DNA from: a virus
Lineage: Duplodnaviria > Heunggongvirae > Uroviricota > Caudoviricetes
Reading direction: 5' to 3' (one strand)
IMG/VR virus record: IMGVR_UViG_2778261657_000002
DNA: 16,393 nucleotides
Shown: in pieces, positions 297 to 16,393 of the stretch
Position numbering within the stretch: the first letter of the stretch is position 1
Layout: each line of letters starts with the position of its first letter
The notes under the pieces: generated by a model
What the model was told of the DNA's origin: nothing
Databases searched by the model: none
Seen by the model: only the letters and a program-made list of their open reading frames with translations
Made by a program: the position numbers and the translations under genes

Positions 297-1337
297 CTAA
301 GCTGTCGCGACATTTTTGCGACATTTTAAGGGGTTAAGTCGCACGGCATCTTCAAGGTGGCTTGGGGCGAAATGGGCATAACGCATTGTCATAGTGATGT
401 CAGCGTGGCCGAGAATTTTTTGCAGAACCAGAATGTTCCCGCCGTTCATCATAAAGTGGCTGGCAAATGTATGGCGCAGTACATGGGTAAGCTGGCCGGA
501 GGGGAGTTCAATGCCTGCGCGTTCCAAAGCAGAGCGGAACGCGTTATAGCAGGGTTTGGGGAACAGAGCGCCTTTCGTTTCAGGCAATTCGGATAGAAGT
601 TCATCATCAAGGGGGATTGTTCTGTTGCGCTTCCCTTTGGTTTTGACGAACGTAACTTTATCGCCTGCGATCTGAGAGCTTTTCAGCGTTGCCGCTTCAT
701 TCCATCTTGCGCCGGTCGCAAGACAGATTTTTACGACTAGCTCCAAGTATTTTACTTTGCTTCGTTTGCATTCCAGCAAAAGCAGCTCAATTTCTTCAGC
801 AGTGAGGAAAGCCATTTCGGTTTCATCAGTACGATACTGTCTGACGTTTTCCAGTGGGTTGGGGGCTGACCATTCCCCGATTCGTTTCAGCTCGTTGAAC
901 ATAGCCAGGAAGTAAGCATGTTCAAGGTTCATTGTTTTCGGGGAAACCTTGGATACTCTGCTAGTGCGGGCATAATGCCCATCAAGCCTTTTTGCGCGGT
1001 AGGCCGTGAACAGCTGGGCATTAAACTCTGTAGCTAGCGGGAATCCCATGCACTCTGCCGCCCAGGTCATAGCGTCTTTGCGCTTTTGACCATTGCGCAA
1101 AGCTACTCCGTGGCGTTCATACCACATTGTGATCAGGTCTATTAAAGTTCGTTTGTCCTTCCCTTCACCCAGCCAGGGCGCACTGTCTACTTTCTGAAGC
1201 GTATGGTTCTCAAATGCCAGGGCTTCCCCCTTCGTGGCAAATTTTTTACGTATGCGCTTCCCGTTCTTACCATTACTACGGTTGACGGTGTAGAAGTCGG
1301 CGATCCATTCGCCTGTCGGAAGTTTACGAACACTCAT
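297..1337 (-). CDS. int: Phage tyrosine integrase (site-specific recombinase)
   Basis: The C-terminal catalytic region carries the tyrosine-recombinase signature LTHVLRHTFASHF...ILGHADITMTMRYAH (R, H-x-x-R and the nucleophile Y). It lies immediately downstream of the cI-like gene, with the cI stop and int ATG arranged as TGAaATG, as in 186. The ORF track starts at a TTG at 1346; I prefer the in-frame ATG at 1337. Confidence 0.93.
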   Translation of the reverse strand: MSVRKLPTGEWIADFYTVNRSNGKNGKRIRKKFATKGEALAFENHTLQKVDSAPWLGEGKDKRTLIDLITMWYERHGVALRNGQKRKDAMTWAAECMGFPLATEFNAQLFTAYRAKRLDGHYARTSRVSKVSPKTMNLEHAYFLAMFNELKRIGEWSAPNPLENVRQYRTDETEMAFLTAEEIELLLLECKRSKVKYLELVVKICLATGARWNEAATLKSSQIAGDKVTFVKTKGKRNRTIPLDDELLSELPETKGALFPKPCYNAFRSALERAGIELPSGQLTHVLRHTFASHFMMNGGNILVLQKILGHADITMTMRYAHFAPSHLEDAVRLNPLKCRKNVATA

Positions 1338-1338
1338 T

Positions 1339-1917
1339 TCATTCAATCGTCAGAACAATGCGGCCGATGATTTTTATATCGTCAATACCGCAGTCAAAAG
1401 CCATACCTACGCCGCTTACTCTAACTTTTCCCACAGGGATGCGTGTTAGTGTTCTAACGCTGGTTTTACCTTCAACTTCGACAAGCCAAACATCGTCATA
1501 AACTTCAGTAAAGTGTTGATCAACAATGTATTGCATTGTGTTATCAATCACACAGATAGGATTCTGCGGTAAAGGTTTGCCAGGTAAAAAAGTAACCTTA
1601 TCGAGCATTAGGAAACCAGACTCATAGAGTTTTCCGTCCACAATCTTCTTGCGTGGCAATTTCATGATGTCTAATTCGTCATCGTTAAACTTTCTACCTT
1701 GTCCAGTCGCAAGCCATTCCAGAGTAGCTCCTGTTTCAGCCATACATCTAACAACGATATCAGCTGGAAAAAAATCCCTCTTATACCGGTTAGCCAGACT
1801 GCTGCTTGCTATATCAAGATGTTCGGCTAGGGCTAGTTTTGTGTTGAATCCATACGCTTGGATAACTCTATCTAGTACCTCAGCTCCGCCATGAGAAAAC
1901 TCAATTTGTAGATTCAC
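1339..1917 (-). CDS. cI: 186-type CI immunity repressor
   Basis: 192 aa, the length I recall for phage 186 CI. N-terminal HTH-like segment (VLDRVIQAYGFNTKLALAEHLDIASSSLANRY). It is transcribed divergently from the apl/cII operon and sits directly upstream of int. The start is a GTG with an AAGG ribosome-binding site about 10 nt upstream. Confidence 0.85.
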   Translation of the reverse strand: MNLQIEFSHGGAEVLDRVIQAYGFNTKLALAEHLDIASSSLANRYKRDFFPADIVVRCMAETGATLEWLATGQGRKFNDDELDIMKLPRKKIVDGKLYESGFLMLDKVTFLPGKPLPQNPICVIDNTMQYIVDQHFTEVYDDVWLVEVEGKTSVRTLTRIPVGKVRVSGVGMAFDCGIDDIKIIGRIVLTIE

Positions 1918-2036: not shown

Positions 2037-2258
2037 ATGCGTCCGAACATTACAATCATCATCCCAGAGCCATACCTGCCTTTAGACGAGTATTGCCGCC
2101 GTACTGGTACCAACAAAGAAACCGCCAGGAACCTGATCGAATACGGGAAATTACCTATTAAGCCGAAGGGTAAGCAGAAGAAAGGCCTGGTCGAAGTCAA
2201 CATGGCCGCGCTCACTATTCAGGCTTTAAGCGAATGTGACATTTCGCTTAACGCGTAA
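2037..2258 (+). CDS. apl: Apl/Cox-like excisionase and transcriptional regulator
   Basis: Small basic protein (73 aa from the ATG at 2037, with a GGAG ribosome-binding site 8 nt upstream) and first gene of the rightward operon opposite cI, the position of apl in 186 and cox in P2. The ORF track's longer 93-aa version begins at a GTG inside the switch region. Confidence 0.7.
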   Translation: MRPNITIIIPEPYLPLDEYCRRTGTNKETARNLIEYGKLPIKPKGKQKKGLVEVNMAALTIQALSECDISLNA

Positions 2259-2288
2259 TCCATCCTACGGATTAGGGAGAGGCAAACA

Positions 2289-2792
2289 ATGTTTGATTAC
2301 CAGACCTCTAAACATGCGCACTTTGATGCGGCTTGCCGAGCATTTGCAATTGAGCACAATCTTGAAGATGTGGCCGCTGCCGTTGGTATGAGGCCACAGA
2401 TCCTGCGTAATAAACTGAACCCAGCGCAACCGCACCGCCTGACCTGTGATGAACTTTTGGCTATCACGGATTACACCGAAGATGCGCGTTTACTGGATGG
2501 GATGCTGGGGCAGATTAACTGCCTTCCATCCGTACCGGTGAACAATGCAACAGAAGGCAACATGCAACTGTGTGCACTGAGCGCCACAGCCAGTGTGGGC
2601 GCGATTGCTGGGGAAGCCGTATCAGCTGGTCATATGACCGCCGCCCGCCGTACTCAAATTCTGGATCGTGCCCGAGATGCAATCCGTAGCTTATCCGTGC
2701 TGGCTTATACCGTTGAAAGCCGTATTCACTCTGCGCCGGTTTTGGCCGCTGCGGTGGATCTGGTCACAACCAACGCCACCGGCCTGATGTGA
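2289..2792 (+). CDS. cII: CII-like lysogeny establishment activator
   Basis: 167 aa, directly after apl. The N-terminus (MFDYQTSKH...ACRAFA...LRNKLNP.QPH) resembles what I recall of 186 CII (169 aa). A GGGAGAGG ribosome-binding site precedes the ATG. Confidence 0.75.
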   Translation: MFDYQTSKHAHFDAACRAFAIEHNLEDVAAAVGMRPQILRNKLNPAQPHRLTCDELLAITDYTEDARLLDGMLGQINCLPSVPVNNATEGNMQLCALSATASVGAIAGEAVSAGHMTAARRTQILDRARDAIRSLSVLAYTVESRIHSAPVLAAAVDLVTTNATGLM

Positions 2793-2801
2793 GGGAGAAC
2801 C

Positions 2802-2975
2802 ATGAAAGCGTTTGTCACTTACCTGAAAAACGAATCACCGGCCATGCAATTGCCCAGTGGTTCAACGGGCTGGATTGAACTGCCGAACGGTCAGCGCTGG
2901 AACCCTGGCCACATGTACAAATTCAATGGCCAGCAGCCGCGTCGCCCGTGGTGGCGTCGTCTGATGGGGCTATAG
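2802..2975 (+). CDS. Hypothetical small early protein (57 aa), not in the ORF track
   Basis: ATG at 2802 preceded by GAGGGAGA. It translates to MKAFVTYLKNESPAMQLPSGSTGWIELPNGQRWNPGHMYKFNGQQPRRPWWRRLMGL and stops with TAG at 2973..2975. It fills the gap between cII and the next ORF in the same orientation. Confidence 0.45.
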   Translation: MKAFVTYLKNESPAMQLPSGSTGWIELPNGQRWNPGHMYKFNGQQPRRPWWRRLMGL

Positions 2976-2984
2976 GGGGACGCT

Positions 2985-3413
2985 ATGGCGATTAGCCAGG
3001 AACAGCAAAAGCGCGGGCTGGAGCATTTAAAACAGATCCGCCGCAAATACTTCAGCGAAAGCAGCGAGGCCGCTGAATGGTGGGACAACTTGACACCGGA
3101 GTGGCGCGGCGTAGTACTTCATGCTGCTGCGGTTACTTCTGGTACCGGGGCATTTAAAGCCCATTTAAGCAAGTGCTGCTGGCGTGAGCTTTATGAACGC
3201 CTGGGCTATCGGGACATGATTCAACTGCGCCAGGGCATTTCACGGGCGCGGTTAACGTTTGAAGGTTTCGGCAGTTTACGTGACAGCGATTTTTCGAAAC
3301 GTACCGCGAACCGCCCAATCAAGAAGGTTCATCCAATTTATAGCAGCAGCGGGGTGCAGATGGTGGTTGCACCTCATATTGTCCAGAAGTTACAGCAACA
3401 GGGGAATCACTGA
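2985..3413 (+). CDS. Hypothetical early protein (142 aa)
   Basis: ORF with a GGGGGA ribosome-binding site, in the early rightward operon; no recognisable motif. Confidence 0.6.
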   Translation: MAISQEQQKRGLEHLKQIRRKYFSESSEAAEWWDNLTPEWRGVVLHAAAVTSGTGAFKAHLSKCCWRELYERLGYRDMIQLRQGISRARLTFEGFGSLRDSDFSKRTANRPIKKVHPIYSSSGVQMVVAPHIVQKLQQQGNH

Positions 3414-3814
3414 TGTCCATTATTTCGGTTGAAGGTAAATCACTAGGGGCAGAGCTGGCTGTGTGGGGCGTCCCGCATAACTACGCATTAGCGTTTGCAG
3501 AGAAAAGCACCAGTAAAAATGGGCGTATCGCTTTGCATCCGTTCTTCTTCAACGACACTGAACACATGACAAATCCGCGTCACTGGCTGGCGATCAATGC
3601 TGCTTTCTGGTGCTGCGTATATCGCGAAGCGAAAAGCAAAGAAGCCCAGATAGAAGCGCTGGCGGGGATTCGTGCAATTTTCTATACAGCCGGGGCGTTG
3701 GGCGTTGGCGAGATAAAAGCGCTGATCCAGGAGTGGTGGCGGATAACCTATGAGCTGCACCTGATTCCGGCACCGAACTACTCAGCCGCCACAGTACAAC
3801 CCACTTTTCACTAA
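3413..3814 (+). CDS. Hypothetical early protein (133 aa)
   Basis: Its start overlaps the previous stop (TGATG), indicating translational coupling; no recognisable motif. Confidence 0.6.
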   Translation: MSIISVEGKSLGAELAVWGVPHNYALAFAEKSTSKNGRIALHPFFFNDTEHMTNPRHWLAINAAFWCCVYREAKSKEAQIEALAGIRAIFYTAGALGVGEIKALIQEWWRITYELHLIPAPNYSAATVQPTFH

Positions 3815-3881
3815 TTAACAGCCTGAATTTTTTGGCCACGGTTCAAGTGGCCGGGGATTCTTTTGCCTTAAGGAAACCAAA

Positions 3882-4115
3882 ATGCACATGACACGTCAGG
3901 ATTTACCCGCAACAAAATCAGGCACCGACCTGCTGGCCATGCTCACCAAAGCCACGCAGGAAGGTAAAGCCGCAGCAGCTGATCTGTGTTCCACCCGTCT
4001 GGATAAGCTGGCCACTCATGCGGCCAATGAAGGTTTAAGCGCAACGGAAATCGTTGAGTTAATCCGCGAAGAAGCCGCAGCGATTTGCAGCAAAGGCGGT
4101 GCGGCATGGAATTGA
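3882..4115 (+). CDS. Hypothetical small protein (77 aa)
   Basis: AAGGAAA ribosome-binding site 7 nt upstream of the ATG; Ala-rich, probably helical; its 3' end overlaps the exonuclease start. Confidence 0.5.
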   Translation: MHMTRQDLPATKSGTDLLAMLTKATQEGKAAAADLCSTRLDKLATHAANEGLSATEIVELIREEAAAICSKGGAAWN

Positions 4116-4810
4116 GCACTCGCAATCAACTTTTTTCGGCCATTTTGGGTGGGGTGGTTTCTGGTGCCAGAGCTAAAGAAGGGGCTTCGTTGCGCGATGT
4201 GATTCGCCAGTGTTGGAGGATCACCGATCAGTCTCTGTATTTTTCCGACCGTCTGGAAACCGAACAACAGATAGCAAAGCGCTGGATTGATAAGGGCTTT
4301 GTCATTCTTGATACAGAAACCACAGGACTAGGATTTGATGATGAAATTGTAGAAATTTCGATCATCGACTGTGCTGGTTACGTTTTGCTTAATACGCTGG
4401 TCAAGCCATCGAAATCTATTCCAGAAGCGGCAACTGCAATTCACGGTATTACGGATGAAATGGTTGCTAATGCACCATCATGGTTGGAAATTCTGCCGAA
4501 AGTATTGGAGTTAACAAGTAAAGGCTGGGTCGCATATAACGCAAAATTTGATGCGCGTATGTTGCGCCAGTCTGGTGGGGATTATGAACAGCATGAGGAT
4601 ATATGCACCCCTGAGTGCGTAATGCAGCTGTACGCAGATTATAACGGTGAATGGGATGTTGTACGCCGTAAAACCCGCTGGAAACGACTTGTGGATGCAG
4701 CGGCGGCGCTTAAGGTTGATGCCGGAGAAGGTGCACCACATAGAGCGTTGTATGACTGCAATCTGACGCTTGGTGTGATCCTTGCTATTGCAGAAGGCGG
4801 TGCAAAATGA
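4106..4810 (+). CDS. DnaQ-like 3'-5' exonuclease (DEDDh family)
   Basis: Exo I motif ILDTETTGL, Exo II motif YNAKFD and Exo III motif H-x4-D (HRALYD) are all present in the correct order. The ATG at 4106 is preferred over the TTG at 4085 used by the ORF track. Confidence 0.85.
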
Positions 4811-5136
4811 CAATCAAAATCCACACGATAAAGATTGCGCCGAAATACCTTGATGCAGTAGTGGCTGGCCAGAAAAAGGCCGAACTGCGAAAAAACGATC
4901 GCGGGTACAAAACCGGTAATGTTCTTTCACTTTGTGAGTGGAAGCACGGGAAATACACCGGGCGTGAGTGGGCGGCGGTTATCACCCATGTTTTTCCTGT
5001 AAATGAAATTATCGCTGATACCGAAAACTGGGCGGTTTTGTCCATCTGTTCACTGTCGCCGCTTGAAGTGCTGGAATACATCATTTCAAACGGTGTCACT
5101 GAGGCGTTAGCTGGCGGAGGTCAATATGGCCGTTAA
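4807..5136 (+). CDS. ASCH/PUA-like (DUF3850-type) domain protein
   Basis: 109 aa. The N-terminal region ([40 protein letters not shown]) resembles the small beta-barrel ASCH/DUF3850 proteins common in phages. Its start overlaps the exonuclease stop (ATGA). Confidence 0.55.
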
Positions 5137-5986
5137 AACTCCGCTTAAATGGGTGGGCAGCAAAGCCCGCCTTATGCCTAAGCTGCGTCCGCACCTTCCA
5201 GAAGGTAAACGCCTGGTTGAACCGTTCGCAGGTTCCTGCGCCGTCATGATGAATACGGATTATGACGAGTATCTGATCGCAGATGTGAATCCTGATCTGG
5301 TTAATCTTTATAAGGCGATGGCGTATCACACTGATGCGCTGCTGAATGAGCTGGAGATCCTGTTTACTGCCAGTTCGTTAGGTGATGAAGAAAGCCGTGC
5401 CGTTTTCTATTACGCCGTGCGTGATGCTTTCAATCTTTCTGGTGGTAAGGCTGGTTCTGAATCTGTTGAAAATGCTGCGCGTTTCCTGTACCTGAATCGC
5501 CACTGCTTCAATGGCCTGTGCCGGTATAACCGCCGAGGACAGTTCAACGTCCCGTTCGGTAAGTACAAAAAGCCTTATTTCCCCGCTGATGAAATCCGCG
5601 CCTTTGCTGAAAAAGCGAAACGCGCAACGTTCATTACTGCCCACTATTCAGAAACACTCGATTTGGTTCGGGACGGGAATGACGTTGTTTACTGTGATCC
5701 GCCTTATCTGACTGAAAGCGACAATTTCACCGCTTACCATGAGCGCGGTTTTACGCATATGGATCAGGGGAGGCTGGCGCGTAAGTTGCGCCGTCTGGCC
5801 AGAAAAGGTGTGCCGGTTGTGGCCTCTAACGCCGATCTGGAAATGGTTCATTACCTGTACGCCGGATTTGAAGCCGTTCGCGTTAATGCCCCGCGAAGTA
5901 TTGGTGCCGCAGCTACATGCCAAAAGACGGCCGCTGAGTTGATTCTGAAGTCTCCGCTTGATTCCATTGTGGTGGCTTGTGCATGA
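5126..5986 (+). CDS. dam: Dam-family DNA N6-adenine methyltransferase
   Basis: Catalytic DPPY motif (VVYCDPPYL), N-terminal AdoMet-binding region (KWVGSKARL...EPFAGSCAV) and overall length typical of GATC-type Dam methylases. GGAGG ribosome-binding site. The target specificity is not shown by the sequence. Confidence 0.9.
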
Positions 5987-8004
5987 CGCTGGCAATAAAC
6001 GAACAATGCTATGCCGTTGATGCCTGGAGGCGGGAAACATTCGCGCCAGGCACTCCGGCAGACGCGACAATCACAGAACGCCGCCTGTGGGCTGTAAACC
6101 CGCAGGATTATGAATGGCGATCCCGGTACCTGCATGAGATACCCGACTGGTTAGCCGGGTATTTTGGCCGTCGTTACGAAAAGCTTTTTTCTGGCCGTGA
6201 CGGGCGTCGCCGTGCCAATACATTCCTGCGCAAAACAATCGGTGAGAATGTATTGCCACGTCTGCGCAAAGTGGCTGCGCGTTACTCGCTGGCCGCTGAT
6301 GCTGCTGATCTTCCTTTTGGTAAGTCGCTGGAGCGCTTGCCGTCACTAGACCGTCCTGATCTTAAAAAACTGGCTGGCCAGATATCTGGCTGGATTTCCC
6401 AGTCACTTTATGACTTCACCGAACAGTTTGATTCCGGCGCTGACGACGCCAGAGAGCTGCATCGCCGCACCCTGGAATCATACCGCCATCTTTGTGCCTG
6501 TTGCCTGATGCTGAATAACCAGCCGCCGTACTGGGCTGAACATGAGGCCAATGAAGGTCAACTGGAAATGCGTAAGGCGGAATCCGGGATACTGCGCATG
6601 ATGGCGCCGGAATGGTGGTACCTGCGTTTTAAACGTGCTCGTGATACGCAGCGCGAGCACATGGCCATTACGGTGGGACAGGTGCAAAAAGCGGCCAGCG
6701 CTTATGTATCTCGCAAAACACTGGGCGAATGGATAGACCAGAAAAAGCGGAATCTGGAGTTCTTTAAAAAGTTTGATCTGCTGAATGATGAGGGGCTGCG
6801 CATTGCACTGGACAGCATGGTGCACCGCAGCGTTGCAAATCCGGCGATCCGTCGATGTGAACTAATGGTAAGAATGCGAGGGTTCGAAGATATGGCCAAT
6901 GAAGAAGGGCTGGCCGGTGAGTTTTACACTATCACCGCGCCATCACGTTTCCATGCGGTTCACAGCAAAGGGGGCTTTGTATCGCAATGGGATGGAAGTA
7001 CACCGCAGGATACCCAGCGCTATTTATGCGGCGTATGGGCAAAAGCACGCGCAGCGATCTCGCGTGCGGGTATTCATGTATTTGGGTTTCGGGTTGTTGA
7101 GCCTCACCATGACGGGACACCGCACTGGCATATGTTGCTTTTTATGCGTCCGCAGGACGTGGACACGGTGCGCGATATTCTTTGCTATCACGCCAGAATT
7201 ACCGATTCTGAAGAACTGCAATCTGAAAAGGCGCTGAAGGCACGTTTTCATGTTGAAGCTATCGATCCCGCCAAAGGTTCGGCCACGGGCTACATCGCGA
7301 AATACATTTCAAAAAATATTGATGGTTTTGCGCTTGATGGTGAGCAGGACGAAGAAACCGGCGAAAACCTGCGTGATATGGCTAAGTCCGTTTCCGCGTG
7401 GGCTTCACGCTGGCGTATTCGCCAGTTTCAGCAGATTGGTGGTGCGCCGGTAACCGTCTGGCGTGAGCTGCGTCGGTTGCGGGATCAGGTACTGACAGAT
7501 CGCAGAATGGATGCGGTTCTGGCCGCTGCTGATGTCGGGGACTGGGCTGCATATACCCAGGCGCAGGGAGGGGCACTGGTTGCCCGCCGTGATCTGGTTG
7601 TTCGTCTGGCCTATGAAATTACGGAACAGGGCAACGAATACGCGGAGGACGTGCAGCGCGTACAGGGTGTTTATTCTCCTTTGGTTCCTGATTCAGAAGT
7701 TTGCACCCGTCTGGTTAAGTGGCAAAAGGTTGCGAAGTTGGCCGAAGCGCCAGCGGAGGCGGGTTTTTCTGGCGGCAACGCCGCCCCTTGGAGTTCTGTC
7801 AATAACTGTACGGAAGGGGGAACCCGCAGACGGTTAAAACTGGAATTATGCAGTCGGGGTTTTGATGGTTCTGATGAAGAAATAGCGATTCTCCTGCGGG
7901 GTAGTGGTTTGAGATTTGGTCAGGGCGCTCTGATTTACCGCAACGGACGGCTTAAAGAGACTCAAAACGAGCCATTACAGGAGCTGTGGCCGGGGTGGTT
8001 ATAG
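5983..8004 (+). CDS. A: Replication initiation protein gpA (rolling-circle nickase)
   Basis: About 674 aa, with the metal-binding HUH-type motif (TPHWHMLLF) and the paired active-site tyrosines (GYIAKYISK) characteristic of the P2/186 A protein. The start overlaps the dam stop (ATGA). The origin should lie inside this gene but I could not locate it. Confidence 0.9.
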   Translation: MTLAINEQCYAVDAWRRETFAPGTPADATITERRLWAVNPQDYEWRSRYLHEIPDWLAGYFGRRYEKLFSGRDGRRRANTFLRKTIGENVLPRLRKVAARYSLAADAADLPFGKSLERLPSLDRPDLKKLAGQISGWISQSLYDFTEQFDSGADDARELHRRTLESYRHLCACCLMLNNQPPYWAEHEANEGQLEMRKAESGILRMMAPEWWYLRFKRARDTQREHMAITVGQVQKAASAYVSRKTLGEWIDQKKRNLEFFKKFDLLNDEGLRIALDSMVHRSVANPAIRRCELMVRMRGFEDMANEEGLAGEFYTITAPSRFHAVHSKGGFVSQWDGSTPQDTQRYLCGVWAKARAAISRAGIHVFGFRVVEPHHDGTPHWHMLLFMRPQDVDTVRDILCYHARITDSEELQSEKALKARFHVEAIDPAKGSATGYIAKYISKNIDGFALDGEQDEETGENLRDMAKSVSAWASRWRIRQFQQIGGAPVTVWRELRRLRDQVLTDRRMDAVLAAADVGDWAAYTQAQGGALVARRDLVVRLAYEITEQGNEYAEDVQRVQGVYSPLVPDSEVCTRLVKWQKVAKLAEAPAEAGFSGGNAAPWSSVNNCTEGGTRRRLKLELCSRGFDGSDEEIAILLRGSGLRFGQGALIYRNGRLKETQNEPLQELWPGWL

Positions 8005-8081
8005 CGGTGTAAGTATGTGAAAGGCATTCATTTGTCAGTAGATGGCAGGAAATTAAATTTCACAATTCGTGCTTTAAGGTG

Positions 8082-8101
8082 TACTGTATGTATATCCAGT
8101 T
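8082..8101 (+). promoter_or_regulatory. Candidate LexA (SOS) box
   Basis: TACTGTATGTATATCCAGTT matches the E. coli LexA consensus TACTGTATATATATACAGTA at 17 of 20 positions, with CTG-N10-CAG retained. It lies 22 bp upstream of the ATG at 8124. Confidence 0.5.
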
Positions 8102-8123
8102 ATTTATTGCTTGTGGGGGCTAA

Positions 8124-8330
8124 ATGGATCTTTTGGAGGCGTCGGCACAGCTGGAACGCATTGAGTTATTGGCCAAAATTGCCCATATTTACGAAAGTAA
8201 CCAGAGAGAGAAAACAATCGCTTTGGCCTGGATTGGAGAGCTTGCGGGAGAGGTTCGCGAAATGGTAAAAAAGGAAGGGCAACGCCCCCAGAATGGGGGC
8301 ATTTTAGGCGGCGGGGGGCATTTTCAGTAG
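8124..8330 (+). CDS. Small ORF downstream of the LexA box; candidate Tum-like SOS-inducible antirepressor
   Basis: 68-aa ORF (MDLLEASAQLERIELLAKIAHIYESNQREKTIALAWIGELAGEVREMVKK...) with a balanced, helical-looking composition and a GGGGG stretch 5 nt upstream of the ATG. Position after gene A and behind a LexA box parallels tum of phage 186. The function is inferred from context only. Confidence 0.4.
   Translation: MDLLEASAQLERIELLAKIAHIYESNQREKTIALAWIGELAGEVREMVKKEGQRPQNGGILGGGGHFQ
8262..8300 (-). terminator. Candidate intrinsic terminator for the minus-strand late operon
   Basis: On the minus strand, immediately after the ogr stop: GCCCCC-attct-GGGGGC hairpin, then gttGCCCttcc and a TTTTTT run. 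The T-run is not directly adjacent to the main stem, so this is tentative. Confidence 0.35.
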
Positions 8331-8627
8331 GTCTAATGCCATCTGGCGCTGATCGGGTGAAAGTGCATTCAGTATTTTTTGCACCATCGCATCACCCGTT
8401 TTAGCGCTGGGGCTGAGAGTGTGGGAGAACGTCAGATTCATAACAAACGTGTGGCCACACTCAACATCTGAACAGGCGCAGTAAATATCCGCAATCTGCC
8501 GGTGCTTCCGGTTCGTTTTACGAATAACAGCCTTTGAGCCGCATTCCGGGCATTCGATTTTCAGAACTCGCATATTCCATGCTCCAGCTGTTAAATGATG
8601 CCTGGATTTTAGCCTGTTTCGCCTCAT
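8304..8627 (-). CDS. ogr: Ogr/Delta-family zinc-finger late-gene transcription activator
   Basis: Contains C-P-x-C ... Y-C-x-C-x4-C-x2-T-F (ECPECGSKAV...IYCACSDVECGHTF), matching the Cys pattern I recall for P2 Ogr and 186 B. The ATG overlaps the portal stop (ATGA). An internal Met (MRVLKIECPEC, start at 8573) is an alternative start. Confidence 0.8.
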   Translation of the reverse strand: MRRNRLKSRHHLTAGAWNMRVLKIECPECGSKAVIRKTNRKHRQIADIYCACSDVECGHTFVMNLTFSHTLSPSAKTGDAMVQKILNALSPDQRQMALDLLKMPPAA

Positions 8628-9685
8628 GCCGCACCCTTATCCGTTGATTCTGTGTAACTTAAATCAAAGTTAAGGTGTAGCCTTTTCGGTATTTCGGGAT
8701 CGCCGTTAACGGCCAGCATGAAACGGCGCTGGATGGGGGCTATTTCGCTTTTCTTGTAAATGCGTTCAGCCTTTTCAACATCCCCCAGTCCGGCAGTGTT
8801 CTGCGGGACAATACCGGCGAGGCCAGCAGGGAAACGGTGCGCGTTCAGAATGTCCTGGGCGCTGATGTTTTTGATATTGGCAAATTCATCTTTTGCAGAA
8901 ATATCCCCCATTTCGATGAACTTGATTGCATCCCCATCCCCGCCTGGTATGTTCACCAGAATAGTGGAGAAGTTACCGATACCTTTGCTGTCACGCAGCT
9001 GCTGTTCAATTTCTTCTTCCATTTCATCCGTCATACTGGGATCGCGGGTATAAAGAATACCGCCTGTGTGCGCACCGTTGTGGTAATAGCGGCGTCGGAA
9101 AATGACCGCTTCACTGTTAAGTAACGCGGAATGCACACCGCCGATGTAGTCTGGCAGTCCGTAGATATGCTGTTGCGGGTCATACATTTTGATAAAGATA
9201 ATATCTTCTTCTGGCCATACCTGCGGTTCCCCTTCCTGTAACACCACGTAGTCACCGGGTTTATCCTGGGCGTTATCTCTGACTTTGCGGCGGCGAATAT
9301 ACAGACCGGGCAAGGGTTCAAGTGCGATCACGTCGCCCCAGCCGTTACGAATTTTGGCAATCGCAATATCCCCAAAGGTTATATAGTCAAACGCTGCCGC
9401 TTCCAGCTGGTCGTGAATAAGCCCGCCCCCCTGATAGTCTGAAACAATCATGTTTTTACGGGCGTGAATGATGCCGCCGTGCTGACCGTTAAGATTAATC
9501 AGTTGTGCGAGTGCCAGCCGGTCAATCGGCTGGGTGAAGTGATCGGCGGCATTGTCGTACCAGATATCACGGTAATCTGTGCCGGTAGTCAGAACCGGTT
9601 CAGGTTTGCCGAATGTGATAATGCTCATCTTTTTTGATTTGTCGCCGCGCTGGTCGCGCTTAACAAAGCGTTTCTTTTTACTCAT
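8624..9685 (-). CDS. Q: Portal protein (gpQ-like)
   Basis: 353 aa (P2 gpQ is about 344 aa). It lies immediately downstream of, and overlaps by ATGA, the terminase large subunit gene, and is divergent from the scaffold and capsid genes, as in P2. Confidence 0.85.
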   Translation of the reverse strand: MSKKKRFVKRDQRGDKSKKMSIITFGKPEPVLTTGTDYRDIWYDNAADHFTQPIDRLALAQLINLNGQHGGIIHARKNMIVSDYQGGGLIHDQLEAAAFDYITFGDIAIAKIRNGWGDVIALEPLPGLYIRRRKVRDNAQDKPGDYVVLQEGEPQVWPEEDIIFIKMYDPQQHIYGLPDYIGGVHSALLNSEAVIFRRRYYHNGAHTGGILYTRDPSMTDEMEEEIEQQLRDSKGIGNFSTILVNIPGGDGDAIKFIEMGDISAKDEFANIKNISAQDILNAHRFPAGLAGIVPQNTAGLGDVEKAERIYKKSEIAPIQRRFMLAVNGDPEIPKRLHLNFDLSYTESTDKGAA

Positions 9686-12420: not shown

Positions 12421-12483
12421 TTCGCTTTAACGCTGATTAGCCCAGAATAAATTTTATATATCGCTTAATTGCGAGGGAGTTTT

Positions 12484-14532
12484 ATGCACCTTAATAATCG
12501 TGCGCGGGATTTACTGGATAAATATTCGGCGGGGATGGCGCAGCATTTTGGCGCACGTGATACCAGTCGTTATTTTTCCCTGAATGACCCGCAGGAAAAT
12601 GCGCTGCGTCTTGCGTTGCTGGAGTCCGTCGAGTTCCTGAACATGATCACCTGTCTGGATGTTGACCAGCTGAGTGGTCAGGTGATTTCTGTCGGTTCTT
12701 CCGTGCTGCATACCGGCCGCAGTGAGAATGGCCGTTTTATTCGTCGTGTGGGTGTTGACGGTAATGACTATTCGCTGGTTGAGACAGACAGCTGCGCCGC
12801 GTTGCGCTGGGATCTGCTTTCGGTTTGGGCAAATGCGGGTAAGGATGAAAACGAGTTTTTCAATCTTGTCCAGGCATTCACCACACAGGCTTTTGCACTG
12901 GATATGCTGCGTATTGGTTTTAATGGTAAAAGCCGCGCAAAAACCACTGACCCGGAAGCCAACCCGAACGGCGAGGATGTGAACGTTGGCTGGCATGAGC
13001 GTATGAAAACGCTGCTGGGCGGCAATCAGATTATGACCGATCCCGTGGTGCTCGATGAGGCCGGGGATTACAAGTCACTGGATGCAATGGCGTCCGATCT
13101 GATTAACGCCAAAATCCCGGCGCAGTTCCGCAATGACCCGCGTCTGGTTGTCCTTGTCGGTGCCGATCTGGTCGCTGCTGAACAGTACCGACTGTATCAG
13201 GCAGCTGACCGTCCGACTGAAAAAATTGCTGCGCAGATGCTGGGGAGCACCATTGCTGGCCGTCAGGCCATTATCCAGGATTACATCTGGTACCAGTTAC
13301 CTGATGGTTCGCTTTACGTCGGCGGCGTAGAAAAGTCATTGTTTGCCGGTCGTCCAGTAGAAATCCCGTCAGAGTTCAGCCAGGGGGCTGCTGGCGGTAA
13401 CTCTGTGACATTACCAGTGATCCAGACTATACGGCCAGGGGTGGAGATGAACGGTGAACGCGTGACTAAAGTTCACCTGACTAATGACACGATGGCGATC
13501 ACATGGACGCCGAGAAACCGCGCAACGGGTAAACCTTTGCAGAAAACACCAGCGCAACGGCAGATTGAAAGCCATTACCCGGAACTGGCATCCGGGCTTC
13601 ATTTGCCAAAGATGGCCAGAGTCGTGGCGCATTCAGAGCCGGTAAAAAGCGGTAACTTTGCCGATCCCTTCCGGCCACGTTACGCCGTGGACGTGCAGCT
13701 GCTTGACGCAGACGGAAATCCGGACAATCAGACGCCTGTTTATTCAGCGGTGCCGCTGCCGGTACCAATGGCCGGGAATGATTCAGGTATGTTTCAGTTC
13801 CCGCCAGAAGGGACGCTGGTTGAGGTCGCATTCACAGGAGGCAGACCGGATAAACCTTTTATCAGGCAGACGCTGCCGAATGGTACCAGTCTGCCGGACG
13901 TTAAACCCGGTGAGCAATTGCAGCAGCAGCGGGAAGAAGTATCCCAGAGGGTGACTCTGGCGGGTGACTGGGTAAGGCAGACCGATCAGACCATCAGTGA
14001 AACATCGATGGTGCGAACGGTAAAAGCAGATACAGAACAACGTGATCTGGTCAGTCGCGAAACCACGGTTAAAGCCACGGATAAAACCATTGTGGTGGGG
14101 ACCGCCACCCTGCTAGCCGGAGCCTTTCAGCAGGTCAGTGCCGGGGATTTTAGCCAGGCCGTGAAAGGTAACAGGCTGGCCAGCATTGAAGGAAACGAAG
14201 AAACGGACATAGCAGGACAGCAGTCCATTAAAGTGGGCGGTGCTGTAGCCGTGGAGGTTGGCGAAAGCCTGACAGAGAAGATTGCCGCGCTGCGTAAATC
14301 AGTGGCCGCTGGCGGTCAGCAGGTCATGGGGGAAACAGTCCATATTGGCAGTGAGAATATCAACGCCCTGACCATGATGCTGGACACTATTGATTTACTG
14401 GCAGAACTGGCGCTGCAATGCGCGAACCATTCACACCCCACCGTTGGGACTCCAACCAATGCCGCCGCGTTCACACAGACGGCGACGAAAGCCGGGCAGA
14501 CCCGGAGCAAGTACCAGAACATCATTGCCTGA
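12484..14532 (+). CDS. Chimeric ORF: N-terminal gpN-like major capsid region fused in frame to a C-terminal gpV-like baseplate spike region
   Basis: About 682 aa from the ATG at 12484 (GAGGGAG ribosome-binding site), roughly twice the size of P2 gpN (about 357 aa). The N-terminal third to half has capsid-like segments (GFNGKSRAKTTDPEANP...VGW, GDYKSLDAM, DPRLVVLVGADL). The C-terminal part has an OB-fold-like segment (FPPEGTLVEVAFTGGRPDKPF) and a terminal HxH motif (CANHSHPTVG) like the iron-binding spike tip of gpV-type proteins. No stop codon or frameshift separates the two parts. Confidence 0.6.
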   Translation: MHLNNRARDLLDKYSAGMAQHFGARDTSRYFSLNDPQENALRLALLESVEFLNMITCLDVDQLSGQVISVGSSVLHTGRSENGRFIRRVGVDGNDYSLVETDSCAALRWDLLSVWANAGKDENEFFNLVQAFTTQAFALDMLRIGFNGKSRAKTTDPEANPNGEDVNVGWHERMKTLLGGNQIMTDPVVLDEAGDYKSLDAMASDLINAKIPAQFRNDPRLVVLVGADLVAAEQYRLYQAADRPTEKIAAQMLGSTIAGRQAIIQDYIWYQLPDGSLYVGGVEKSLFAGRPVEIPSEFSQGAAGGNSVTLPVIQTIRPGVEMNGERVTKVHLTNDTMAITWTPRNRATGKPLQKTPAQRQIESHYPELASGLHLPKMARVVAHSEPVKSGNFADPFRPRYAVDVQLLDADGNPDNQTPVYSAVPLPVPMAGNDSGMFQFPPEGTLVEVAFTGGRPDKPFIRQTLPNGTSLPDVKPGEQLQQQREEVSQRVTLAGDWVRQTDQTISETSMVRTVKADTEQRDLVSRETTVKATDKTIVVGTATLLAGAFQQVSAGDFSQAVKGNRLASIEGNEETDIAGQQSIKVGGAVAVEVGESLTEKIAALRKSVAAGGQQVMGETVHIGSENINALTMMLDTIDLLAELALQCANHSHPTVGTPTNAAAFTQTATKAGQTRSKYQNIIA

Positions 14533-14622
14533 CCATTCCAGACAGCCCACAAAACGCGGGGTTTGTCGTTTTCTCAGTTCCTTGATAGGATTATTGCATA
14601 CTCAAATGATAGGAATAGGGAT

Positions 14623-14955
14623 ATGAAAAATTTCATTATATTAGCTGTAGGAGCAGCAGTTTCATTCAATGTGTTTGCGGCTGAGGTTGTTTATGTGCCA
14701 ACAGATACGAAGGCTAGTTACACGATTTTAGATAAGACTCGCGACGGCAGCATGGCTACTATAACAACCGAAAGAAAGGGGCCGTCTGGAACATCATATT
14801 CAAAGCGGCTGTACGACTGTACTGCCGGGACAGTTAAATATCTTGGAGACGGTGAGACCATCGAGCAGATGAATAACTCGGCACCAGATCCAAATATGGC
14901 CCCTATAGTTGACCGCTCAATTGCATACTACATTGGACAAAAAGCCTGTCAGTAA
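14623..14955 (+). CDS. Small exported protein of unknown function (110 aa with a signal peptide)
   Basis: N-terminal MKNFIILAVGAAVSFNVFA-AEV is a typical Sec signal peptide with an AXA-like cleavage site. Two cysteines in the mature part, AGGAA-type ribosome-binding site, followed by a strong intrinsic terminator. GC content is lower than in the phage genes. The ORF track's longer form starts at 14563, but the signal peptide begins at M21. Confidence 0.6.
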   Translation: MKNFIILAVGAAVSFNVFAAEVVYVPTDTKASYTILDKTRDGSMATITTERKGPSGTSYSKRLYDCTAGTVKYLGDGETIEQMNNSAPDPNMAPIVDRSIAYYIGQKACQ

Positions 14956-14995
14956 CTACGTTCTTATATCGGTTGATATGAATTGAACACACCTT

Positions 14996-15020
14996 AACCC
15001 GCATTGTGCGGGTTTTTTTG
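14996..15020 (+). terminator. Rho-independent terminator
   Basis: AACCCGCA-ttg-TGCGGGTT hairpin followed directly by TTTTTTT, 40 nt after the stop of the exported-protein ORF. Confidence 0.75.
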
Positions 15021-15532
15021 TACCCACCACCAGACCGCACAGAACGCTCTCAGCAGGCGGGACAACACTAGGGTAACCACTGCGACACCGCAATAAGATC
15101 AAATTCACAGCGACGCTCTGAGGTAGCCACATGCAGACAAAATAAATCTTTCGCAGACAAAAACGGCACTACACCGCACCCGCCTGCGGTTTCTGGATCG
15201 ATAAATTTTTTCAGTTTTATTTTTCTACAAACCAGACTGTCATCTCGCGCCAGCACTGGTGGCTTTGCGGAAAACCCAAACTGAAAAGATTGAAAAGAAT
15301 TTCAGTGTTTATCAGTTTTTCGTGGGGATAAGGTTGTTGTGAGTATTCTATCTTTATGATTTATATATATTATTTTTATTTTCTTTGATGTTATATCGAA
15401 GTCGTGTTTCAGCCTGATTTATTGAACTGATTGATTTTATGGCAATTTACCATATAGATGGCTTGGATTTTATTGCAATAAATCATAAAATAGATCATTC
15501 AAAAATCAATCATTCTTTATGCTAGGTATCTT

Positions 15533-16393
15533 ATGGATAGCAAGTTGAATCTTGATGAGGCAGGTAGAATCGCTTGGCAGCATGCAGCACTTGTTTTGAG
15601 CAAGAAAATTGGTATCGGTTCTAAAAAATTTAATGAAGACCTGAAGGTTTTAATTAATCAATTTGGGAATATTGAAAACATTTATCAATATCACTTTGGC
15701 ATGGTTCCAATCGATCCTGATTTGATTCGCGTACTCGATAAAAAATTTTCCAACCTAAATTTTAAGTTTGAAGTATTACAATTTAATGATGAACTATATC
15801 CCAACGCATTGAGACAAATTTATGGGATTCCCCCAATCTATTATTATAGAGGCGATGTCAGTTTGTTGGGGATTGAGGATAGTATCTCTTTTGTTGGGAC
15901 GCGAAATCTTGATGAAAAAGCGTATATTGAACATGGTGTTGATGTTATAAAAAGATTATTTTCTGCGGGCTATAAGGTCATCGTAAGTGGATTGGCTAAA
16001 GGTTCGGATACCCTCGGACATAAAACAGCAATAGAATTAGGGGGGCGAACCATTGCTGTATTAGGAACACCTCTTGATGTATCTTATCCAGCGGAAAATA
16101 AAGTGTTGCAAAATCAAATAGCAACTGAGCATTTAGTAATTACTGAATATCCTATCGGGATTGGTAGTTTTGGAACATACTTCGCAAATAGAAACCTCAC
16201 TACCGTAAGTTTATCGCACAAAGGAATAGTAGTTGCACGTGCTGGTGATAAAAGCGGTACTCAATATGCGATCAAAACTTGTATTGAGCAAGGTAAGCCG
16301 GTTTACGTTTTGGAAAATAATATCTATGAGCCTGATTTTAAATGGGTAGAAAAATATAAAGATAAAATAAAAGTAATTAGAATGACAAAATAA
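15533..16393 (+). CDS. DprA/Smf-family (SLOG-fold) DNA-processing protein homologue
   Basis: 286 aa. The Rossmann-like core matches DprA signatures: PPIYYYRGDVSLL...ISFVGTRNL...VIVSGLAKGSDTLGHKTAIELGGRTIAVLGTPLDVSYPAENKVLQNQIA...LVITEYPIG...FANRNLTTVSLSHKGIVVARAGDKSGTQ (compare E. coli Smf VVSGLARGID..AH..AL..GG.TIAVLG.GLD.IYP..N..L). The gene is very AT-rich and stops at the last base of the window. Confidence 0.8.
   Translation: MDSKLNLDEAGRIAWQHAALVLSKKIGIGSKKFNEDLKVLINQFGNIENIYQYHFGMVPIDPDLIRVLDKKFSNLNFKFEVLQFNDELYPNALRQIYGIPPIYYYRGDVSLLGIEDSISFVGTRNLDEKAYIEHGVDVIKRLFSAGYKVIVSGLAKGSDTLGHKTAIELGGRTIAVLGTPLDVSYPAENKVLQNQIATEHLVITEYPIGIGSFGTYFANRNLTTVSLSHKGIVVARAGDKSGTQYAIKTCIEQGKPVYVLENNIYEPDFKWVEKYKDKIKVIRMTK

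Follow-up and report, generated by a model that had tools for sequence, protein, structure and literature searches.

When a phage adenine methylase is encoded next to a small ASCH/PUA-like protein, directly upstream of the replication gene, do the two proteins form a methylation writer/reader pair, or do the genes of such a block act separately? We addressed this question in an IMG/VR record of a tailed phage (IMGVR_UViG_2778261657_000002; Caudoviricetes), the whole 16,393-nt stretch of which is called the window here.

Gene content and junctions of the packed block

Five tightly packed genes, for a DUF2732 protein, a DEDDh exonuclease, a DUF3850/ASCH protein, a Dam methylase, and gpA, occupy positions 3882-8004:

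3829..3857, + strand: putative terminator-like GC-rich hairpin, 11-pair stem, then a T-rich tail (consensus scan)
3882..4115, + strand: DUF2732 protein gene, 77 aa (Pfam DUF2732, 2.8e-12; PHROG 128; annotated in EC101 and ev040)
4106..4810, + strand: predicted DEDDh 3'-5' exonuclease, DnaQ/ExoX/PolC-exo-like, 234 aa (Pfam RNase_T, 3.3e-20)
4807..4810, + strand: ATGA junction of exonuclease stop and ASCH start (read from sequence)
4807..5136, + strand: DUF3850/ASCH (PUA-like beta-barrel) protein, 109 aa (Pfam DUF3850, 3.8e-21; ASCH, 1e-4)
5126..5136, + strand: ASCH/Dam overlap of 11 nt, ATGGCCGTTAA, with GGAGG upstream (read from sequence)
5126..5986, + strand: predicted orphan Dam-family (D12 class) N6-adenine DNA methyltransferase, 286 aa (Pfam MethyltransfD12, 9.6e-67)
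5983..8004, + strand: predicted gpA rolling-circle replication initiator (HUH nickase), 673 aa (Pfam Phage_GPA, 4.4e-104)

An earlier note on this DNA had described the exonuclease, ASCH, Dam, and gpA genes as tightly packed through overlaps at 4807..4810, 5126..5136, and 5983..5986, and reading of the sequence bore out both the packing and each coordinate: the exonuclease starts with the ATG at 4106, dam begins with an ATG at 5126 before the ASCH stop codon (TAA at 5134-5136) is reached, and the ATGA at 5983-5986 holds the Dam stop and the start of gpA, which ends at 8004. All four genes had also been identified correctly (Pfam RNase_T, DUF3850 plus ASCH, MethyltransfD12, and Phage_GPA). The linkage of four genes therein was accurate as to the overlaps but missed a fifth member, the DUF2732 gene; since the 3' end of this gene overlaps the exonuclease start by 10 nt (4106-4115), the packed run begins at 3882, with the terminator-like hairpin lying in the 67-nt gap immediately 5' of it. 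Likewise, the description of the block as fused to the replication gene holds for the 4-nt dam/gpA overlap but not for the proteins, which are separate, and in relatives dam and gpA are parted by a dcm gene (ev129) or a ~250-nt spacer. Gene boundaries are identical in the NCBI PGAP annotation of an E. coli EC101 prophage (NZ_CP196707) that is 100% identical to the window over 4106-5986. A Shine-Dalgarno-like GGAGG is found 6 nt 5' of the dam start, with weaker GG-rich sites at the other starts, and such a site within the upstream gene, together with the stop/start overlaps, is consistent with translational coupling. Stop/start overlaps are the usual packing in phage operons; they also occur in the relatives and in the neighboring gene pair (2985-3413 and 3413-3814), and those described here are real and unremarkable.

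The methylase scored 269.9 bits against NCBIfam TIGR00571 (cut-off 114.85) and matched E. coli Dam (2G1P) with an E-value of 1.2e-60 and DPPY conserved, the EPFAGS (SAM) and CDPPY (catalytic) motifs being legible in its translation and alignment. K9, N120, L122, R124, P134, and Y138 of E. coli Dam, which we take to be its GATC contacts in 2G1P, are conserved in the phage protein, and Y119 is replaced by F. This alignment supports the note's reading of a Dam-like adenine methylase that is probably GATC-specific. GATC is not depleted in the window, with 65 sites vs. 51.6 ± 6.5 expected. An anti-restriction role has been described for phage Dam, and host Dam was reported to be limiting for high-copy DNA (bioRxiv 10.1101/2020.06.22.160242).

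The exonuclease reached 73.7 bits against RNase_T (PF00929; cut-off 24), carries D-T-E in LDTETTG, NAKFD, and H-x4-D in HRALYD, and matched the PolC exonuclease (2P1J) and ExoX (4FZX) in the PDB. Its scores fell below the NCBIfam equivalog cut-offs for ExoX (72 bits vs. 202) and dnaQ_proteo (55.8 vs. 222.7), which rules it out as an orthologue of either, although it is related to both; a role in proofreading or end processing is possible. gpA matched Phage_GPA (PF05840) at 348 bits and PHROG 91 ('nicking at origin of replication'), and its H381-W-H383, Y437, and Y441 (HWH and YxxxY) are invariant in alignment A4.

The ASCH/PUA-like fold that had been attributed to the 109-aa protein was confirmed by Pfam (DUF3850, PF12961, 75.5 bits vs. 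a gathering score of 22.9; ASCH, 23.3 vs. 21.2), by an AF2 model (pLDDT 84.5; pTM 0.77), and by Foldseek, in which the best match of the model was PDB 3IUW (E 3e-9; target-normalized TM 0.92; rmsd 1.4 Å), also the best sequence match (5e-8). Further Foldseek matches were YqfB, PH0355, ZmASCH, TthASCH, TRIP4-ASCH, and, weakly, YTHDF2 (E 0.03; TM 0.42). The translation contains a GxKxxExR octapeptide (G21-Q-K23-K-A-E26-L-R28), whose K, E, and R, together with the DR of an NDR motif, are invariant among distant homologues (alignment A3); the close alignment A1 shows no variation at E26 and R28 and almost none at K23. The Lys and Glu matching K23 and E26 are essential for catalysis in TthASCH, EOLA1, and TRIP4-ASCH, according to a preprint (bioRxiv 10.64898/2026.02.27.708502). 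Residues 85-109 add a C-terminal helix and a disordered tail. Since dN/dS between two ASCH alleles is 0.18, the gene is under purifying selection.

Cassette exchange between DUF2732 and gpA

The block is a commonplace early operon, of a kind already annotated, in an E. coli prophage of the P2/186-like type. As a standard P2-like arrangement the locus itself matters little, but it illustrates cleanly how cassettes are exchanged at conserved junctions where genes overlap. DUF2732 forms the conserved left border of a variable slot. Among 80 Dam-anchored loci, the slot held Dam only in 55, ASCH and Dam in 13, exonuclease, ASCH, and Dam in eight, exonuclease and Dam in two, and dcm and Dam in two. 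In a sister prophage, which occupies the same mntS-side site, the genes read DUF2732-Dam-gpA, with neither exonuclease nor ASCH, and in one locus (L008) an unrelated gene of 189 aa stands where the exonuclease would be. The order is permuted in other P2-like lineages (Dam-ASCH-gpA; ASCH-exonuclease-Dam-dcm-gpA). The exonuclease was present in only 9/80 ASCH-anchored loci, as two alleles that are ~50% identical.

A junction alignment (A2) revealed a module, GGCGG..ATGGC.GT.AAA, common to the DUF2732/Dam, DUF2732/ASCH, and ASCH/Dam borders. When the window was compared with locus L018, the sequences flanking the ASCH gene were ~100% identical and all ~100 mismatches of the stretch fell in 4819-5122, i.e., wholly inside the ASCH ORF and between its two junctions; 4807..4810 and 5126..5136 are thus the left and right recombination boundaries of the ASCH cassette. 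ASCH alleles were swapped while dam remained 99-100% identical, and all four combinations of exonuclease and ASCH alleles occurred alongside near-identical dam genes. Exonuclease and ASCH alleles therefore reassort exactly at gene junctions.

ASCH-Dam co-occurrence and rival explanations

The proposal that the methylase and the ASCH protein form a writer/reader pair is not new; it restates that of Iyer, Zhang and Aravind 2016 (PMC4738411), who suggested that ASCH domains associated with N6A methylases discriminate m6A. We surveyed 80 ASCH-anchored IMG/VR loci, 80 Dam-anchored loci, and, at the species level, 80 gpA-anchored loci of P2-like prophages in a collection with one genome per species. 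The co-occurrence that the note had suggested checking was found in one direction: Dam followed the ASCH gene in 78/80 ASCH-anchored loci, whereas only 21/80 Dam-anchored loci had an ASCH gene. In the species-level sample, no association between ASCH and Dam was found (2x2 counts 6/5/28/41; Fisher p=0.51), in a test of low power, since only 11 loci were ASCH-positive; in three of these prophages DUF3850 overlaps the gpA start with no Dam. Outside P2-like phages DUF3850 sits among SSB, RecT, DnaB, and YopX genes, and a DNA methylase lay within 2.5 kb of it in ~12/50 loci (~24%), a proportion that by a rough estimate exceeds random placement; these methylases are of six families, C5 included. 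Consistent linkage of ASCH to an N6-adenine methylase was thus not found among the Dam-anchored, species-level, or non-P2 loci, and the co-occurrence is asymmetric and lineage-bound; the comparison with related phages thus gives no support to a dedicated writer/reader pair. Nevertheless, ASCH adjoins dam both in the window's clade and in a second P2-like clade, and since this adjacency outlasts changes in gene order, some functional link may exist.

For a writer/reader pair, Dam would methylate GATC and the ASCH protein would read N6-methyladenine, coupling methylation to gpA replication, packaging, or protection from restriction. The fold and its weak structural similarity to YTH m6A readers, the adjacency to Dam in ASCH-anchored loci even under permuted order, the D12 methylases lying directly and independently beside DUF3850 in two unrelated non-P2 phages (L135 and L160), and the published claim of ASCH fusions to, or operon linkage with, N6A methylases (PMC4738411) all fit this reading. 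On the other hand, 59/80 close dam loci are without ASCH, DUF3850 can precede gpA without Dam, about three quarters of the non-P2 loci have no nearby methylase and C5 types are among those present, ASCH alleles exchange independently of dam, and the reader role of ASCH was still unconfirmed by experiment in a 2024 paper (PMC11037411). We consider the pairing quite unlikely, and the DUF3850 protein is probably not a dedicated reader of Dam methylation. A related idea, improbable in our judgment, is that DUF3850, as a phage-specific minimal ASCH domain, recognizes or processes a modified base, e.g., the m6A of hemimethylated GATC, close to or at the site nicked by gpA. Such a role could account for its constant placement just upstream of replication genes and for its frequently lying next to methylases. 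If so, the methylation state of new phage DNA would be linked to rolling-circle re-initiation, and DUF3850 in Dam-less phages would read host methylation.

An unlikely but somewhat better-placed alternative is a host-directed RNA enzyme, in which ASCH would remove N4-acetylcytidine from host tRNA or salvage acylated cytidine and in this way reprogram translation or the nucleotide pools while the phage grows lytically, with the neighboring DNA genes unrelated. The octapeptide with its conserved K23, E26, and R28 and the presence of YqfB and TthASCH among the structural matches are consistent with this, and, as the preprint reports, all 19 ASCH proteins assayed deacetylate tRNA ac4C and depend on the Lys and Glu (bioRxiv 10.64898/2026.02.27.708502). 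However, none of the assayed proteins that we noted there is a DUF3850 member, and the DUF3850 domain is shorter than those enzymes, its context is consistently DNA replication or recombination, and its fusion partners are ParB-CTPase, DUF1642, and DUF551 rather than RNA modules. By analogy, the ASCH gene could instead serve anti-defense: since Dam and exonucleases of phages are known to trigger retron toxin/antitoxin defense, the ASCH gene, lying between the two, would encode a linked blocker of such a system. Dam and RecE trigger retron-Sen2 and racC-recE is a linked blocker/trigger pair (bioRxiv 10.1101/2020.06.22.160242), which offers a parallel, as does the fast turnover of ASCH alleles between fixed flanks. 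The dN/dS of the ASCH alleles gives no sign of diversifying selection, though, and DUF3850 is widespread in phages with neither Dam nor exonuclease nearby, so that we regard this role as very improbable.

Proposed organization and comparison with known systems

The account that we favor as rather probable is that the block forms the distal portion of the lytic (early) operon in an E. coli prophage of the 186/P2-like Peduoviridae, built of recombining cassettes. DUF2732 on the left and gpA on the right would be the fixed genes bracketing a slot filled with varying small DNA-metabolism cassettes (none, Dam, ASCH+Dam, exonuclease+ASCH+Dam, exonuclease+Dam, or Dam+Dcm), which homologous recombination would swap precisely at the short stop/start overlaps sharing the sequence module. 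We infer expression from an early promoter, presumably with translational coupling, and each cassette most likely acts independently. The orphan Dam probably holds the fast-replicating phage DNA fully methylated at GATC and would thereby shield it from GATC-cutting restriction enzymes, and the exonuclease would be a DnaQ/ExoX-like 3'-5' DNase for replication or end processing. The DUF3850 protein is a minimal ASCH domain that retains the Lys/Glu/Arg octapeptide, which is catalytic in other ASCH proteins, these being N4-acylcytosine amidohydrolases; its most likely activity is to bind a base, flipped or free, and perhaps to hydrolyze it, in a replication context. With 13,552 cluster representatives at E<=0.001, the phage-associated DUF3850 family is very large; since it sits reliably in replication modules, and the protein is small and easily expressed, it is a reasonable biochemical target.

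The closest known relatives are the EC101 prophage and the Escherichia phages ESSI2_ev040, ev015, and ev129 (Peduoviridae, Quadragintavirus), in all of which the same order of DUF2732, exonuclease, DUF3850, Dam, and gpA is already annotated; the ESSI2 phages are ~94-95% identical over the aligned part (84-97%) of window positions 3800-8100. Differences are an additional dcm gene that separates dam from gpA in ev129, the alternative exonuclease allele in ev040 and ev015, and a deletion inside the late region of the window's prophage. The window also follows the 186/P2 layout of the early operon (integrase, CI repressor, Cox/Apl-like regulator, cII, fil, small ORFs, and gpA), with ogr, portal, and terminase downstream of gpA on the opposite strand, and its gpA shares the HUH and YxxxY motifs with replication gene A of 186/P2; P2 and 186 themselves are not known to carry the exonuclease, ASCH, and Dam cassettes. 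The methylase has DPPY and the presumed GATC contacts in common with E. coli Dam and phage orphan Dams, and differs from E. coli Dam in being phage-borne and orphan, with F in place of Y119 and a specificity that is predicted.

The ~80-residue minimal ASCH barrel of 3IUW ('activating signal cointegrator', Enterococcus faecalis) resembles that of the window protein at 30-32% identity, the C-terminal helix and tail being extra in the latter. The GKER-type ASCH amidohydrolases (TthASCH 2DP9, EOLA1, TRIP4-ASCH) and YqfB share with it the PUA-like barrel, the GxKxxExR octapeptide, and equivalent Lys and Glu positions. All of these are larger domains, however (~110-150 aa), while DUF3850 is a separate Pfam family with a domain of ~80 aa that lacks the C-terminal elements of the characterized amidohydrolases, and its genes are found in the setting of DNA replication, not of tRNA metabolism. 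Finally, where Iyer, Zhang and Aravind 2016 set ASCH beside an adenine methylase as an m6A discriminator, the link observed here is absent from most other phage contexts and, among P2-like prophages, is not significant overall but holds within some clades.

Layout and packing of the early genes

The window covers the left portion of a P2/186-like prophage, with genes in this order:

297-1346, minus strand: integrase
1339-1917, minus strand: CI repressor
between CI and cII: Cox/Apl-like regulator
2289-2792: cII
between cII and DUF2732: fil and two unknown genes
3882-4115: DUF2732
4106-4810: DEDDh exonuclease
4807-5136: DUF3850/ASCH protein (109 aa)
5126-5986: Dam methylase
5983-8004: gpA
after gpA, other strand: ogr, portal, terminase

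Reading of the sequence located, at the coordinates given, every stop/start overlap that the earlier note had claimed from the exonuclease to gpA. Since DUF2732 also overlaps the exonuclease gene, by an additional 10 nt, the packed head-to-tail run comprises five genes. These overlaps are the usual packing of a phage operon; a gene pair at 3413 likewise overlaps, and the overlaps were found again in relatives. GGAGG lies 6 nt upstream of the dam start, and weaker GG-rich sites precede the remaining starts. The block had also been described as fused to the replication gene, of which the 4-nt dam/gpA overlap stands but nothing beyond it; in relatives, dam and gpA can be parted by a dcm gene or a ~250-nt spacer.

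The early operon's only sizeable intergenic gap, just ahead of DUF2732, holds a terminator-like hairpin (3829-3857; 11-pair stem and T-rich tail) that may serve as an attenuation point before the replication genes. An Rfam scan of the whole window returned no family at gathering score, and a repeat search of 3800-8300 found short chance-level repeats only, with no iterons or GATC clusters.

The ASCH protein and its neighbors

The 109-aa protein is clearly a DUF3850/ASCH member. The ASCH/PUA-like fold anticipated for it was borne out, since the Pfam match (DUF3850, 3.8e-21), the sequence match to PDB 3IUW (5e-8), the AlphaFold model (pLDDT 84.5), and the Foldseek ranking all point to ASCH/DUF3850. 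Foldseek placed 3IUW first (target-normalised TM 0.92), followed by YqfB, PH0355, ZmASCH, TthASCH, and TRIP4-ASCH; YTHDF2 was matched weakly. The GxKxxExR octapeptide is kept, and its K, E, and R, together with the DR of NDR and one serine, are invariant across distant homologues. In a preprint (bioRxiv 10.64898/2026.02.27.708502), TthASCH, EOLA1, and TRIP4-ASCH are reported to depend on the equivalent Lys and Glu to deacetylate N4-acetylcytidine. Because K, E, and R are invariant and this Lys and Glu are catalytic in relatives, an enzymatic or base-pocket function is at least as likely for this protein as passive reading of N6-methyladenine (m6A).

At codon 38 (4918-4920), the window allele encodes Asn, giving GN; in at least 90% of DUF3850 homologues, the 97%-identical Salmonella cluster among them, the residue is Asp (GD). 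The window allele also has Phe63 in place of Leu. Among ten long homologues no DUF3850-methylase fusion was found, the only partner there being DUF551 (in protein P0158). Fusions to DUF1642 occur in loci L091 (3557-4240) and L134 (3485-4246); like DUF551, DUF1642 is a phage domain of unknown function. Prophage DUF3850 is also fused to ParB-CTPase domains (PMC12704722).

The exonuclease carries the DEDDh motifs and resembles ExoX, DnaQ, and the PolC exonuclease domain, although it scores far under all equivalog cut-offs. gpA has its HUH and paired-tyrosine motifs. For the methylase, the alignment to E. coli Dam (2G1P) has an E value of 1.2e-60 and shows DPPY retained. Those residues of E. coli Dam that we take to contact GATC are also kept, the sole change being Y119 to F. 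The window shows no avoidance of GATC, with 65 sites vs 51.6 +/- 6.5 expected. In a host with its own Dam, a phage Dam plausibly serves to methylate fast-replicating DNA fully and to shield it from enzymes that cut GATC; reportedly, host Dam is limiting for high-copy DNA (bioRxiv 10.1101/2020.06.22.160242).

Co-occurrence of ASCH and Dam

The earlier note suggested that Dam and the ASCH protein could act as writer and reader of methylation, with co-occurrence of the two genes in related phages as a check. Co-occurrence held when IMG/VR loci were anchored on ASCH, where dam directly follows in 78/80, including a second P2-like clade with gpA only 34-38% identical; it did not hold in the reverse direction. 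ASCH was present in only 21/80 Dam-anchored loci, while 55/80 were DUF2732-Dam(-gpA) with nothing between, two had the exonuclease alone, and two had dcm upstream. In a gpA-anchored sample of 80 loci from a one-genome-per-species collection, both genes were present in 6, ASCH alone in 5, Dam alone in 28, and neither in 41 (odds ratio 1.76, Fisher p=0.51).

The two exceptions to adjacency, L072 and L077, were rejected as examples of ASCH without Dam; they are deletion derivatives with baseplate genes straight after the ASCH gene. In both (L072 7309-10170), the deletion joins ASCH to an HP1_ORF34-family gene and the window's spike-like gene, and L072 carries an HTH-Dcm-like methylase further downstream. 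In three loci of the gpA-anchored sample (L258, L293, and L312), the start of gpA is overlapped by a DUF3850 gene and no methylase is seen nearby; in the L258 copy of DUF3850, the motif glutamate has been lost. In L247, an Erwinia P2-like prophage, the match is positioned downstream of gpA and resembles a canonical ASCH protein, not DUF3850; two such genes occur there (8241-8624 and 9230-9607). Gilliamella prophages L280, L281, L283, and L285 have two tandem Dam-family genes upstream of gpA (~2200-4850). When distant DUF3850 sequences served as queries, more P2-like lineages turned up, with permuted orders (Dam-ASCH-gpA; ASCH-exo-Dam-dcm-gpA).

Across 50 non-P2 phage loci, DUF3850 neighbors were YopX (17 loci), SSB (10), RecT, DnaB, primase, DUF1064, and sigma-like regulators. 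About 12/50 had a DNA methylase within 2.5 kb (MT-A70, C5, N6_N4, PF05869, MTS/DUF4942, or D12), two D12 genes directly adjoining DUF3850; we estimate this to be an enrichment over an assumed, rather than computed, background frequency. The family-wide constant is a replication/recombination neighborhood, not a methylase.

Probable variable slot ahead of gpA and closest relatives

Comparison of the window with prophage locus L018 showed ~100% identity either side of the ASCH gene, all ~100 mismatches of the stretch falling within it at 4819-5122. The two ASCH alleles share 69% protein identity with a dN/dS of 0.18, on which, along with the conserved motifs, a pseudogene or a non-functional ASCH was rejected. 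Both exonuclease alleles pair with both ASCH alleles while dam is near-identical throughout; in locus L008, the place of the exonuclease is taken by an unrelated gene of 189 aa. Gene borders share the module GGCGG..ATGGC.GT.AAA, and Dam and many ASCH proteins begin MAVK, which provides short stretches of homology through which border exchange could occur.

Most simply, the region ahead of gpA reads as an accessory slot of variable content, filled with independent DNA-metabolism cassettes. On this reading, position accounts for the near-perfect ASCH-to-Dam adjacency in close relatives: in those clades dam lies near a core gene, with the insertion point just upstream of dam. As a hypothesis, the writer/reader pairing is not new: the m6A-reader role of ASCH was published in 2016 (PMC4738411) and described as still unconfirmed in 2024 (PMC11037411). 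The present comparisons weaken the pairing.

At 12469-14532, a P2-type major capsid gene is cut off and continues in frame (breakpoint about 13270-13276) into the 3' portion of a gene that resembles a baseplate spike and has Phage_base_V/gp5 repeats. Since capsid and gpM are intact in the E. coli EC101 prophage and Peduoviridae phage ESSI2_ev040, the window prophage has lost a large internal segment and is probably defective. To judge by L072 and L077 as well, deletions with an end among these tail genes seem recurrent. In the low-GC stretch that closes the window (14500-16393; 0.37-0.42) there are an ORF of 130 aa that matched no family and a DprA/Smf-like protein (DNA_processg_A, 1.8e-44, under the DprA equivalog cut-off), which may be cargo or a defense-type gene where the deletion ends.

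Neither the locus nor its annotation is new. Over 4106-5986 the window and the EC101 chromosome share 100% identity; the NCBI annotation of EC101 has exactly the same gene boundaries, and the prophage there adjoins mntS. A sister prophage occupying that chromosomal site is without exonuclease and ASCH. The window also corresponds to the beginning of IMG/VR contig UViG_2778261166_000009. ESSI2_ev040, ev015, and ev129 (Peduoviridae, Quadragintavirus) share the window's gene order, with ~94-95% nucleotide identity over the aligned part.
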